In this document: positions 46,501-52,500 of the stretch, piece after piece
How the letters are laid out: each line of letters begins with the position of its first letter
Position numbering within the stretch: position 1 is the first letter of the stretch
Assembly (NCBI RefSeq): GCF_022846255.1
Contig: NZ_AP025682.1
Strand: one strand, 5' to 3'
Source: Escherichia coli
GTDB taxonomy: Bacteria > Pseudomonadota > Gammaproteobacteria > Enterobacterales > Enterobacteriaceae
Length of the DNA stretch: 64,000 nt
Made by a program: the position numbers

Positions 46501-49500
46501 CGAGAACGACGCCAGAGCCCTGTTTGAGTTTACTTCCGGCGTGAATGTTACTGAATCCCCGATCATCTATCGCGACGAAAGTATGCGCACCGCCTGCTCT
46601 CCCGATGGTTTATGCAGTGACGGCAATGGCCTTGAGCTGAAATGCCCGTTTACCTCCCGGGATTTCATGAAGTTCCGGCTCGGTGGTTTCGAGGCCATAA
46701 AATCGGCTTACATGGCCCAGGTGCAGTACAGCATGTGGGTGACGCGAAAAGATGCCTGGTACTTTGCCAACTATGACCCGCGTATGAAGCGTGAAGGCCT
46801 GCATTATGTCGTGATTGAGCAGAATGAAAAGTACATGGCGAATTTTGACGAGATGGTGCCGGAGTTCATCGAAAAAATGGACGTGGCACTGGCTGAAATT
46901 GGTTTTGTATTTGGGGAGCAATGGCGATGAAGCATCCTCACGATAATATCCGGGTAGGCGCGATCACTTTCGTCTACTCCGTTACAAAGCGAGGCTGGGT
47001 ATTTCCCGGCCTTTCTGTTATCCGAAATCCCCTGAAAGCACAGCGGCTGGCTGAGGAGATAAATAATAAACGGGGAGCTGTATGCACAAAGCATCTCCCG
47101 TTGAGTTAAGAACGAGTATCGAGATGGCACATAGCCTCGCTCAAATTGGAGTCAGGTTTGTGCCAATACCAGTAGAAACAGACGAAGAATTTCATACGTT
47201 AGCCGCATCCCTTTCACAAAAGCTGGAAATGATGGTGGCGAAAGCAGAAGCAGATGAGAGAGACCAGGTATGACAACCACTGAATGCATTTTTCTGGCAG
47301 CGGGCTTCATATTCTGTGTGCTTATGCTTGCCGACATGGGGCTTGTTCAGTGACACCTCAGCAAGAAAACGCCCTTCGCAGCATTGCCCGTCAGGCTAAT
47401 TCTGAAATCAAAAAAGCCAGACAGCAGTTTCCGGATAAAAACGTCGATGACATTTGCCGTAGCGTACTGAAGAAGCACCGCGAAACGGTAACGCTGATGG
47501 GATTCACACCGACTCATTTAAGCCTTGCGATCGGCATGTTGAACGGCGTCTTTAAGGAACGGTGAACATGAAAAGCAAAATCATCAGGGAGCTACAGGCT
47601 CCTTTTTTATTATTCGCATTTACCCTCAAGCGTATTAACCAACAATTCAGGGATTAATGAAAGATGGCGGACATCATTGATTCAGTATCAGAAATTGAAG
47701 AATTACAGCGCAATACAGCAATAAAAATGCGTCGTCTGAACCACCAGACTATATCTGCCACTCATTGTTGTGAGTGTGGCGATCCGATAGATGAACTAAG
47801 ACGTCTGGCCGTTCAGGGTTGTCGGACTTGTGCAAGTTGCCAGGAAGATCTGGAGCTTATCAGTAAACAGAGAGGTTCGAAGTGAGCGAAATTAACTCTC
47901 AGGCACTGCGTGAAGCGGCGGAACGTGCAATTCCAGCAATGGAACGCCTGTTAATGTTGCCAGCTGATGATGATTTGTTAAGTGAACAGGAACTTAAAGA
48001 TTACGGTGTGGATATTGATGCGCTCAACGCCTTCAAATTTCTGGCCGGACCAGAAACCGTGCTGGCACTGCGCCGTCAGGAAGTTTTTTAGTACGATCAA
48101 TGGTTAACTCAACTCTCATGATTCCCTCCTCATTGATTTACTGTGTGAATATACAGTTACTTTATAAACCTCTCATTTGGATTTTGCAATGTTTTAAGGG
48201 CACGAATTGCGAATAACCCTATACAAAAAAACCCGCCGAAGCGGGTCTTATCTTTCATTAATGCTTAGTCCTTACAGGAAAAGACCAGCATTTATATCCG
48301 TATGCGTGTGCATCCAAAACTCGGCGCTCTGAGTCAGGCGTCCCAGCTTTAGCTCGCGCCCTGCGATAACGACATTTTACCCAGCGGAAACCATCCGGAA
48401 GTTTTTTGGTAGGAATTTCTTTCAAAGCCATAAATAAACCTCGTTCCAGGCGAGCACTTCCCTGAAACTTGATAAAAATATGGGGATCCGCTAATGTACT
48501 GTTGTTGACGCAGTACTGATTGCGGGTGCTCTAACATCCCCAATCCGAGCCCTTCCCCGGCAAAGGAAGGGCTCAAATTCTTATGAAGGCTTCACATACG
48601 CCTTCAAAATCGACATAATACGCTCAGCTTCTTCCATCGTGATGTTGGTAGGCAACCCCTGAACTGTAATCATTGCCCCTGTTTCAGGTCGAACAACGAT
48701 CGGTAAATTGAAAGTCTGCACTTTCTCATGTCTTGCAGCTTTAGCTTTCTCCATCTTCTGCTCCACCGCATCAAACCCATCTAAATTTCCTTCGGTGTCT
48801 GCCAAGTTGACTAAAGTCCCCACTCGCGTGTACTCCTCAAACTTATTGACAGCACTTTTAAACCGGCTTCGATAATTATGAATGGTGGATTCACTGGGCT
48901 TGTTTGCCTGAGTTTCAGCATAACGAGTAATGAGGTCTTCAACGTTCAGGTCGCGCACATCATCGTTGTCACTCGTGTCGACCACAGATAACAGCAGCAA
49001 CGCAGAATTTTTTAAGTTGCGAGCTGTTGCTTCGTTGATCAGCCCCAAGTTAGGCAACTTCATAAGAAAATCGAAGAATGCTTGCGTTGAGTAATTATCG
49101 TTCATAAGCATCTCTCATTGTTATCCATAGGTGTAGTGTAGATTCAGAGGTTTTACCGATCAATGTTTTTTTTATCGATCGATCAATCTTTTTTTAAATC
49201 TAACCAATCCCACCCACTTAAAAACACTCAACAACATTTCACCCCCTCAGAAACAAAATAAAATAAACTATATAAAACAACAAAATACACAGATCTATAA
49301 AACAGACAACCGCCCCCGCCTCCCCCACCCCATACTGAATTTAGATACAGCCTTAGTTAATCAACCTTCGTTCACCAGAGCAGCACATATGCCTTCGGAC
49401 TTTTTAGTTAAGCCACAAATGGCAGTTTGCACAGTTCTGGTAGATTTGCCCTTACCAGAGCCTCCGCGAATTGTGGAGGTACGGCATTTCCGCATCTGGC

Positions 49501-52500
49501 GACCTGTTTATCCTTCGCATACTTCACGCCACGATAATCTTGGTCGATGATGTACCAGTCCGGGAAGCCCTGCGCCCGGTACAGTTCACGCGGCTGTAAC
49601 ATGCGCATACCAATATCAACAATGCGATACGTCACGCCATCGATCACCACCAGCCCGGTACAATCCTCGCCACAGTATTTACGCAGGAACGACAGCGTTT
49701 GTTGCGCGCGTTCTTCGTCGTACTCATCTACGGCAAGATGGGTTTCAACGTTCCCTACATGCAGGCCACCAGCCGTGACAGTCGGCATTGGCGCGTCGGT
49801 GCGTTGTCCATCCCGGCAGGTTCCGCGCAATTTAACCAGGTGAGAAGCAACCACAGCATGGTGATCGACGGTGGTCACAGAATGCATCGGCTCATCCATC
49901 CCCACTTCGGCAATAAACCGGTAAAGGTGTTCGCGATAAAGGTGAATATCAATGACTAAATCAGCAGCAGAAAGCAAAAGAATTTTTAGGTACAATCAAA
50001 ATCACTTTTTGTTGTTAACTATTTGATGAACTACAAGGATAAGATCATGTATCAGCAAATCATTTTTGAAGAAGGAAAAGAACCAAGAGTGCACACAAGC
50101 CACCAAGACATCAAGACATCAAGACATCAAGACATCAAGACATCAAGACATCAAGTCTATCGAAATAAGTGATAACAGTGGAAAAGTTCAAGAGATTTCG
50201 GTTATGGAGTTCAAGGATACCAGAGGAGATGTTTTTTATGCTTACAACTATGCTTATTCTGGTAAAAAACCATCAAATGACGAAATCTATAAGGCTATTG
50301 ATGAGCTAAAGCCAATCGGTGAAAAATTCGAAATGTCTAAGACTATAAGCGATTAGATAAATCTGTTTTCAACATTGCAGCAAAATCATAGGAAGAACGC
50401 GACAAAGTTAACATGCTATCGCGAACAGTCGTTAACATCACCTAAAGTCAGCGAATCGCGATACATGGAAATGTCTGGGAAGAACGCCAAGAAGTAAGCG
50501 CAATTTGAACAAATGCGAACCCGCCGAGTGCGGGTTTTCTTTTATCTGAACTCGCTACGGCGGGTTTTGTTTTATGGAGACAAGAAATGTCAGATTTGGC
50601 TATGAAGGTTTTGAAATGGCAATCGACTGGCGATGTTGGCATCAGTAGCGCAACTCTTGCCTCAATCGCATGTGGACTGAAAAAGAATATCTATGGTCAT
50701 AGCTTCGGTGCTCCACATGACGCAGCCGATTTCCGACGATGCGTTGCGCTTGTCGAGCAGATTCCAGAAATCAGGGATTCATTCGACAAGGTTGCAAAGC
50801 GCGTTCCGGCATTCAAAGGCATCCTCAACGAATGGGATTCTCTCGTTGCTCTGTTGAAGTCTGAAATGAAGATACACGGAAACAAAGCACCAGAGACTTA
50901 CAGAAGAATTAGCGAGTTACGCAAGGACTAACCACAGCCTCACACTCGATGAGGCCCGTTCATTTCTCAAGATATCCAGACCTACCATTGCCGCATCAAT
51001 GCGGCTTTTCTTGCGTGTAATTGCGGAGACTTTGCGATGTACTTGACACTTCAGGAGTGGAACGCACGCCAGCGACGCCCAAGAAGCCTTGAAACAGTTC
51101 GTCGATGGGTGCGCGAATGCAGGATATTCCCTCCTCCGGTTAAGGATGGAAGAGAGTATCTGTTCCACGAATCAGCGGTAAAGGTTGACTTAAATCGACC
51201 AGTAACAGGTAGCCTTTTGAAGAGGATCAGAAATGGGAAGAAGGCGAAGTCATGAGCGCCGGGATTTACCCCCTAACCTTTATATAAGAAACAATGGATA
51301 TTACTGCTACAGGGACCCAAGGACGGGTAAAGAGTTCGGATTAGGCAGAGACAGGAGGATAGCAATTACTGAAGCAATACAGGCCAATATTGAGTTACTC
51401 TCAGACAGCGGACGCAAATCACTAATAGACAGAATTAAAGGCGGTGACGCAATCACTCTTCATGTGTGGCTTGACCGATATGAAACAATCCTCACCGAAA
51501 GGGGGATCAGGCCGAAAACTCTACTCGACTACGCCAGCAAAATCAGGGCAATCCGAAGAAAATTGCCGGACAAACCGCTCACTGACATATCAACGAAAGA
51601 AGTGGCAGCAATGCTAAACACCTACGTAGCAGAAGGTAAAGCAGCTTCCGCAAAATTAATCAGGTCAACCCTTGTTGACGTTTTTCGTGAAGCAATAGCC
51701 GAGGGGCATGTGGCAACGAATCCGGTAACAGCAACCCGTACAGCAAAGTCAGAAGTAAGGCGCTCAAGGCTGACAGCTAATGAGTATGTCGAGATTTACC
51801 ATGCAGCCGAACCTCTCCCTATCTGGCTAAGGCTGGCGATGGATTTGGCCGTCGTTACAGGGCAGAGAGTCGGCGATTTGTGCAGAATGAAATGGTCAGA
51901 CATAAACGACAACCATCTTCACATTGAACAGAGTAAAACAGGGGCTAAACTCGCCATTCCGCTAACGCTAACGATTGACGCGCTCAATATCTCATTGGCT
52001 GATACACTACAGAAATGCAGGGAGGCCAGCAGCAGTGAAACTATAATCGCATCAAAGCATCACGATCCGCTTTCCCCGAAAACAGTATCAAAGTATTTTA
52101 CAAAGGCGAGAAATGCATCTGGACTCTCATTTGATGGAAACCCGCCAACATTCCATGAACTGCGTAGCCTGTCAGCGAGGCTATACCGGAACCAGATTGG
52201 CGATAAGTTTGCTCAACGTCTTCTCGGGCATAAATCAGACTCAATGGCGGCGCGGTATAGGGACAGCCGTGGACGGGAATGGGACAAAATTGAAATCGAC
52301 AAATGATTTTATTTTGACTAATAATGACCTGCCTACATTAATTCATTGATAATAAAAGAGATTTTAAATATACAACTTATTCACCTAAAGTGCACCGACC
52401 GTGAATTTAACCCTGACCCGAAGACTCTGGATGGGCTTTGCCCTGATGGCGCTGTTAACCCTGACCAGTACCCTGGTGGGATGGTACAACCTGCGCTTTA

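Follow-up and report, generated by a model that had tools for sequence, protein, structure and literature searches.

A 3'-terminal DNA methyltransferase gene remnant at a microhomology joint in a lambda-like prophage of Escherichia coli

In the split cytosine-5 (C5) DNA methyltransferases (MTases) M.AquI and M.EcoHK31I, a small polypeptide supplies the C-terminal motifs, either motif IX or the target-recognition domain (TRD) together with motifs IX and X, and the gene for the large subunit, carrying motifs I-VIII, lies adjacent to it or overlaps it. Here, we describe an open reading frame (ORF) that superficially resembles such a small subunit, found in a 64,000-nucleotide (nt) stretch of Escherichia coli DNA (assembly GCF_022846255.1, contig NZ_AP025682.1), which we refer to as the window. 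The ORF (49408..49995, minus strand) encodes 195 amino acids (aa) from a TTG start and, in the ORF listing of the window, contains QPRELYRAQGFPDWY and GNAVPP, but no partner with motifs I-VIII is present in the window. We consider it probable, at roughly 85%, that this ORF is a dead fragment belonging to a nin-region segment that was captured in inverted orientation into the ea/exo-xis region of a lambda-like prophage.

Two further kinds of described system are relevant to this locus. Multispecific C5-MTases are known in the Bacillus phages SPR, phi3T, rho11s, and H2; the long variable region of the intact enterobacterial parent of our fragment resembles the tandem TRDs of these enzymes. In addition, the viable phage mEp237 carries mEp237_046, a 134-aa "C-5 cytosine-specific DNA methylase" annotated as similar to the C terminus of a Klebsiella methylase, which is a C-terminal-only remnant of the same family as the window fragment and is 81.8% identical in aa sequence to its residues 43-163. 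After the mEp237 remnant come a slot for a small gene and then a dinI-like gene, an order also found in the inverted segment described below. It differs, however, in having another breakpoint, in being ~30 aa shorter, and in still lying in sense orientation in the nin region; its truncation is a separate event.

More generally, lambdoid phages are mosaics in which novel joints occur at gene boundaries or at microhomologies, scraps of genes are left behind, and autonomous cassettes (morons) can stand in the opposite orientation to their surroundings. The locus in the window shares these features throughout, and only the composition of its cassette is particular to it. Nothing specific on truncated cytosine methyltransferases of lambdoid prophages came up in a literature search.

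Homology to an intact methyltransferase and the missing catalytic part

An earlier note on this DNA had read the ORF as a truncated C5-MTase remnant bearing GNAVPP, and profile and translated searches agree with it. Pfam PF00145 matches with its C-terminal end only (ORF residues 97-182 against profile positions 239-320 of 324, E=1.5e-07), and the score of 31.6 bits, against a cut-off of 22, is at the level of a domain fragment. TIGR00675 reaches 21.5 bits against a cut-off of 100.65, with only its last ~85 positions matched. The strongest profile match is to PHROG 23072 "DNA methyltransferase" (ORF residues 33-190 against positions 214-393 of 400, E=2.9e-71). With tblastn, the E. coli H6 MTase (662 aa) aligns through its residues 495-656 to window positions 49911-49426 at 96.9% aa identity (E=1e-100), and the corresponding DNA (49426-49911) is 92.4% identical to the H6 gene. 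Among 5,426 complete E. coli genomes searched by megablast, a match to this interval at 92.4% identity was found only in H5 and H6, where it forms the 3' end of a 1,989-nt "DNA cytosine methyltransferase" gene lying in a lambdoid prophage's nin region. A search of PDB sequences with the ORF gave zero matches. PADLOC and NCBIfam searches gave C-terminal MTase hits only for the remnant and no matches for its neighbors.

The product of the H5/H6 gene, WP_073464677.1 (662 aa), clusters at 90% identity with E. coli and Pseudocitrobacter enzymes of 660-682 aa, and the remnant ORFs cluster with these full-length enzymes at the same threshold. The share of the parent retained in the window is 162 of 662 aa (~25%), a quarter and not the C-terminal half that had been proposed. 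It comprises the last two TRD-like modules (P-x-x-(S/T)-V-T), motif IX (QPRELYRAQGFPD), and motif X (GNAVPP), all shared with WP_073464677.1. In comparison with that enzyme, the fragment lacks residues 1-494, including three repeated modules, ends in a different 6-residue tail, and is antisense in the exo-xis region, whereas the parental gene is sense in the nin region. At the DNA level, homology with the MTase gene spans only 49426 to 49906/49911: the final 5-6 codons of the remnant differ from H6, the C-terminal tail being variable across the MTase family, and ORF codons 1-32 (49995-49900) are not MTase sequence but an antisense reading of an 82-bp scar of backbone DNA. The collinear, high-identity alignment argues that the ORF descends from a ~660-aa C5-MTase of enterobacterial prophages.

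In the intact H6 enzyme, motif I lies at residue 9, motif IV (PDC) at 76, motif VI (ENV) at 116, motif VIII at 207, motif IX at 602, and motif X at 635, with four P-x-x-T-V/I-T-A-G-G modules within residues 346-535. The N-terminal part was sought throughout the window, so that an inverted or split gene would also be detected. Neither tblastn nor blastn found a counterpart of H6 residues 1-494 anywhere in the 64 kb, the N-terminal parts of two other prophage C5-MTases had no tblastn match in the window, and a regular-expression scan found no motif IV or motif VI pattern in any of its six frames. Motif I (F-x-G-x-G, which binds S-adenosylmethionine) and motif VIII (R-x-R) are missing from the ORF. 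Thus, the absence of the N-terminal catalytic motifs, as claimed in the earlier note, holds across the entire window, and no N-terminal half in frame with the ORF was found. Since it has no S-adenosylmethionine site (motif I), no catalytic cysteine (motif IV), and neither motif VI nor motif VIII, the fragment would, by established C5-MTase enzymology, be incapable of methylating DNA.

Intact parents of 658-662 aa are present at L001:3980-5968 (H6) and L015:7144-9120. Between motifs VIII and IX they carry four to five tandem TRD-like modules with a mutual identity of ~30%, each consisting of a hydrophobic stretch followed by P-x-x-T-V/I-T-A-G-G. By analogy with the multispecific enzymes, such modules would fit a self-protective orphan methylase, and "anti-restriction methylase" appears to be a reasonable label for the intact parent.

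Broken copies of this methylase appear to be common in prophages. Other remnants of the family are cut at many points and range from 110 to 340 aa in length. Chimeric N termini, for example helix-turn-helix-like or Ead/Ea22-like ones (P0044, P0110), and internal deletions between modules (P0012, P0116) also occur, and at four Citrobacter loci (L018-L021:5911-6084) a 60-aa C-terminal scrap directly follows a 180-aa/57-aa gene pair of the type discussed below. At three loci the gene is frameshifted (L026:2018-3995, L027:2269-3995, L029:2122-4091), in different places: a 1-nt deletion in L027, a run of eight G residues before a conserved Met in L029, and two shifts in L026. Some of the broken MTases from metagenomes could be assembly errors.

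The junction, the inverted segment of probable nin-region origin, and its distribution

To locate the breakpoint, the earlier note had proposed alignment to an intact phage methyltransferase; we aligned four sequences, namely the window, the MTase locus of H6, HK022, and E. coli 13E0780. The window tracks the MTase gene up to ...TCATCCATCCCCACT and then continues in the 3' end of an ASCH/"RNA-binding" gene that resembles HK022 gp34 and runs on the other strand; the two parts meet in a 10-bp microhomology (Table 1). These 10 bp also contain the remnant's first in-frame ATG (49899-49897). On this evidence, the join would be an illegitimate, microhomology-mediated, head-to-head one, with both genes lacking their 5' parts. 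The scar beyond it also includes, at positions 49952-49978, the first nine codons of a 112-aa gene, which is the next gene in 13E0780-type phages. A Gifsy-1/2-like segment bearing a repeat-containing gene begins only at 49957.

On the other side of the remnant, the region ~48060-49906 (~1.85 kb) is a single inverted segment whose two ends are both cut short (MTase' ... 'dinI). Read along the minus strand, it contains the MTase 3' end, a spacer, a 176-aa gene, a 57-aa gene, a terminator, and an SOS box with the 5' part of dinI. The segment takes the place of backbone DNA reaching from codon ~63 of an Ead/Ea22-like gene to the 3' end of the ASCH-like gene. The shortened Ead/Ea22-like gene reads on, as a 69-aa ORF, into the antisense strand of the dinI remnant and is another pseudogene scrap; the dinI remnant in turn reads through past its 20 homologous codons to a stop at 48033, homology ending at ~48060. 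Given the abrupt loss of homology at 49906/49911 to unrelated DNA, the MTase remnant qualifies, as far as sequence can tell, as a pseudogene at a mosaic joint.

The provenance of the segment is indicated by its relatives. Prophages of Salmonella and Citrobacter, and others from metagenomes, carry homologous pairs of a 173-180-aa and a 57-aa gene, with 73-90% identity, in their nin regions; the pairs point the same way as the replication and Q genes (pR), and dinI usually comes next. The MTase is itself a nin gene in H6, L015, and mEp237, the last of which also has the order MTase, small-gene slot, dinI. Because the pair, the MTase, and dinI all reside in the nin region in these relatives, the segment is best read as nin-region DNA from another lambdoid phage that entered the exo-xis region in reverse orientation. 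A site-specific inversion or one mediated by an insertion sequence was rejected, as no inverted repeats flank the 1.85-kb segment.

Together with its two scars, the segment forms a cassette that we found in two phage backbones, between which it is 99.3-99.4% identical, including the MTase remnant and the junction. In the assembly collection, the index lists the exact 176-aa protein for 88 blocks, and the context of the cassette was read at eight loci (L007-L014). Three of these (L008, L011, L014) have the lambda-like int-xis context seen in the window. The remaining five (L007, L009, L010, L012, L013) belong to another phage type, in which the cassette lies between replication/ea genes and the small terminase gene; here the repeat-containing gene is absent and the junction is identical, and the 112-aa gene that starts in the scar is, as in 13E0780, complete, with the small terminase gene next. 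As a side observation, the int-xis-cassette-exo regions of the three lambda-like loci are near-identical to the window (98.5% over 4 kb), and their chromosomal sites are three: torS, an RND efflux operon, and pectinesterase/aconitase.

Annotation of the fragment varies. The gene calls of the collection place no gene over the remnant at any of the eight loci. In public protein sets, the 195-aa form is a "hypothetical protein" (BDH33981.1, 1 contig), and 159-aa forms occur on 34 and 97 contigs, one of them named "C-5 cytosine-specific DNA methylase".

Origin of the fragment and alternative explanations

In the scenario that we favor, a donor lambdoid phage would have carried in its nin region, in this order, the MTase 3' end, the spacer, the 176-aa and 57-aa genes, the terminator, and the SOS-box promoter with 20 dinI codons. 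A ~1.85-kb piece of this region would have been joined, in inverted orientation, into an early-left (ea/exo-xis) region by illegitimate recombination, with the right-hand join using the CATCCCCACT microhomology and cutting the methylase gene at codon ~497. This join probably arose originally in a phage of the 13E0780 type, because the natural downstream 112-aa gene is intact there; from the same comparison we infer the direction of transfer, in which the 2.1-kb cassette would later have spread by homologous recombination into lambda/HK022-like prophages, including the one in the window. The fragment would then persist through its physical linkage to the neighboring transcription unit and through the recency of the event, not through use.

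Several points weigh against this scenario. The origin of the segment is a reconstruction from the gene order of relatives, and the search for a donor phage in which an intact MTase immediately precedes the 176-aa gene found none: an IMG/VR scan yielded no relatives, and in the contexts of the 90%, 78%, and 73% homologues the pair lies in nin regions with other genes upstream and with MTases either ~2 kb downstream or absent. Furthermore, the ORF is open in nine of the nine cassette copies examined, four variable sites are too few to prove neutral decay, and the ATG at the junction, together with an adjoining G-rich stretch, could allow low-level translation.

Capture and truncation may also have been separate events. 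A larger inverted nin segment with an intact MTase would first have been inserted into the ea region, and a later deletion at the microhomology would have taken the 5' 75% of the MTase gene along with the backbone genes up to the 3' end of the ASCH-like gene. The microhomology join suits a deletion as well as it suits a one-step capture, and deletions and frameshifts are frequent in this MTase; the intermediate state, however, was not seen among the loci examined, and one extra event is needed to reach an identical end product with the same lack of function. We infer a one-step capture and regard the two-step route as unlikely. Another proposal, that of the earlier note, was that a recombination or insertion event destroyed a resident, intact anti-restriction methylase in place, its missing part being displaced by the incoming, divergently oriented repeat-containing gene. 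The part about recombination stands, in that recombination at the 10-bp microhomology truncated the gene; the remnant does lack its 5' three-quarters, and the repeat gene lies only ~70 bp past the start of the ORF. The part about displacement in place does not. What abuts the breakpoint is the 82-bp scar of the ASCH-like and 112-aa genes, with the Gifsy-like segment starting beyond the break, and the same breakpoint occurs in the five phages of the second type, which lack the repeat gene; therefore the repeat gene did not cause the truncation. There is also no sign that an intact methylase ever resided at this prophage position, since the remnant runs antisense to the pL operon and forms one edge of an inverted nin segment that ends in a truncated dinI. 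We consider an in situ loss of this kind very improbable.

The alternative that the ORF encodes a functional small protein, either the small subunit of a split C5-MTase or a DNA-binding or regulatory protein for the adjacent unit, has several points in its favor. Besides being open in every copy, the ORF has a ratio of non-synonymous to synonymous substitution rates (dN/dS) of 0.07 against the intact H6 gene (29 synonymous and 8 non-synonymous differences), it has an ATG at the junction, proteins of 159-195 aa are called in some annotations, and split C5-MTases are known. In addition, several ORFs of 164-196 aa in the databases start at the same Met, which led us to consider a conserved small-protein or split-methylase family. 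We rejected this family because these look-alikes (L026, L027, L029) proved to be the second halves of independently frameshifted genes, their shared start being simply the first conserved Met downstream of the frameshifts; with remnant boundaries scattered over 110-340 aa, none is conserved. The small-protein family that the earlier note had envisaged as an alternative to a fragment thus dissolves. The window holds no partner, and the flanking genes are unrelated. A consensus scan found no promoter-like site upstream of the remnant on the minus strand, and the G-rich stretch (GTGGGG) directly abuts the junction ATG, which makes for poor Shine-Dalgarno spacing; the fragment is presumably not expressed. 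As to the low dN/dS, the remnant differs at only four sites among the nine cassette copies, three of the four being third-codon positions. Taken together, the low dN/dS and these few variable sites indicate that the divergence predates a recent truncation: it would have accrued while the gene was intact, and there appears to be no sign of selection on the fragment. A functional small protein is therefore, in our assessment, extremely improbable.

A related idea is that the remnant is retained because it serves the cassette. The polypeptide of TRD and motifs IX/X starting at the junction ATG might, as one option, bind the target sites of the parent methylase or interfere with incoming methylases; as another, the remnant might act as a DNA buffer that shields the regulatory region of the 176-aa gene from antisense pL transcription. 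The open ORF in every copy and the conservation of the cassette in two backbones are compatible with such a reading, but nothing positively supports it, and we attach hardly any probability to it. A dead fragment captured with an inverted nin segment remains the explanation we prefer.

Setting, neighboring genes, and implications

The prophage that carries the cassette adjoins torS. Its torS-yccM-gnsA flank in the window is E. coli chromosome, 98.8% identical to E2348/69, and phage lambda covers ~66% of the 25 kb of the prophage at ~96% identity. The pL (early-left) operon of the prophage runs on the plus strand, whereas the remnant sits in its exo-xis region on the minus strand. HK022-like sequence (the tL4 terminator, a gp32-like gene, xis, and int) resumes at ~50532. 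Coordinates of the individual features are listed in Table 1.

Table 1. Features of the remnant locus and its surroundings in the window.
Feature	Coordinates	Strand	Basis or comment
3' remnant of ~660-aa C5 DNA cytosine methyltransferase gene	49408..49906	-	~residues 495-662 of WP_073464677
Recombination junction, 10-bp microhomology CATCCCCACT	49897..49906	.	MTase gene (-) / ASCH/HK022-gp34-like gene (+)
82-bp backbone scar	49897..49978	+	last ~60 nt of ASCH-like gene (stop 49959) and start of next gene
Cassette	47881..49978	.	2,098 bp; lambda/HK022-like prophages (three att sites) and 13E0780-type phage backbone
Ead/Ea22-like gene cut to first ~63 codons (left backbone scar)	47882..48091	+	PF13935, residues 2-63
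dinI 5' remnant and SOS/LexA box	48060..48156	-	ATG at 48119; 20 codons MRVELTIDRTKKLPDGAVPA
Intrinsic terminator AAGACCCGCTTCGGCGGGTTTTTTT ending the minus-strand unit	48228..48249	-	terminator scan
57-aa gene	48258..48431	-	PHROG 33859, full-length match; constant partner of 173-180-aa gene in enterobacterial prophages
176-aa gene	48581..49111	-	PHROG 2602, full-length match
AT-rich regulatory spacer upstream of 176-aa gene	49112..49407	-	sequence and homologous-locus comparison
exo	46250-46930	+	pL operon; several small genes after exo
xis	51037-51255	+	PF07825
int	51233-52306	+	followed by torS

The 176-aa gene is likely the real cargo of the segment. The N-terminal part of its product has the predicted fold of a tyrosine-recombinase core-binding (SAM-like) domain, without a catalytic domain, and is accompanied by a small conserved C-terminal beta-hairpin/helix domain. 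The protein is 44% identical to VT2-Sakai orf22, located between cI and N, and it may be a DNA-binding regulator or an exclusion factor. VT2-Sakai orf22 fills the cI-N "rex" slot of Stx phages, and homologues of the 176-aa protein are confined to prophages of Enterobacteriaceae, always with the 57-aa partner. The two-gene unit has the hallmarks of a moron-type cassette, with its own terminator, a conserved upstream block, and an orientation independent of the host operon, and it occupies different slots, sense in nin regions and antisense in exo-xis here.

The spacer between the remnant and the 176-aa gene contains a GATC-rich direct repeat, CGATCAAT(G/C)TTTTTTT, in two copies with a CGATCGATC palindrome (49157-49195), as well as a LexA-box-like CTG-N10-CAG at ~49335-49350. 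Both the repeat and the LexA-box-like site are conserved at the homologous Salmonella and Citrobacter loci and could be operator, Dam, or SOS control sites; no site in the spacer passed a consensus sigma-70 scan. At the far end of the segment, the SOS/LexA box of the dinI remnant (CTGTATATTCACACAG) lies at ~48141-48156, and if it is active, SOS induction would fire antisense into genes of the pL operon. Rfam matches at 48226-48375 on the minus strand, over the 57-aa ORF and the terminator, were rejected as sub-threshold (RsmY, 22 bits against 57; isrK, 20.7 against 50) and are probably chance hits driven by the terminator hairpin.

The repeat-containing gene of the Gifsy-like segment (50047-50356, repeat at 50096-50155) is a homologue of Gifsy-2 STM1019.1n (PHROG 7123). 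At the three lambda-like loci it contains a single CAAGACAT unit, and its 89-aa ORF, which starts at the ATG, is intact. The window has ~6-7 units, five extra 8-bp copies (+40 bp) that cause a frameshift: the ATG frame (50047) ends after 41 aa, and the conserved C terminus can be reached only from a TTG in another frame. In-frame unit numbers would be 1, 4, or 7. This expansion possibly reflects slipped-strand phase variation or simple inactivation.

The MTase remnant is an ordinary passenger, a pseudogene fragment at a routine scar of lambdoid mosaicism. Annotators should label the ORF a partial MTase remnant without function, in place of "C-5 cytosine-specific DNA methylase" or "hypothetical protein", and it should not count in predictions of the methylome or of anti-restriction functions for the lysogen. 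The locus offers a clean, base-resolved case of the microhomology-mediated mosaic joints of lambdoid phages, in which a nin-region cassette would have moved, inverted, to the exo-xis region and then spread between phage types. What is of functional interest here is the neighboring 176-aa protein with its core-binding-domain-like fold, together with its 57-aa partner, and not the scrap of methylase beside them.

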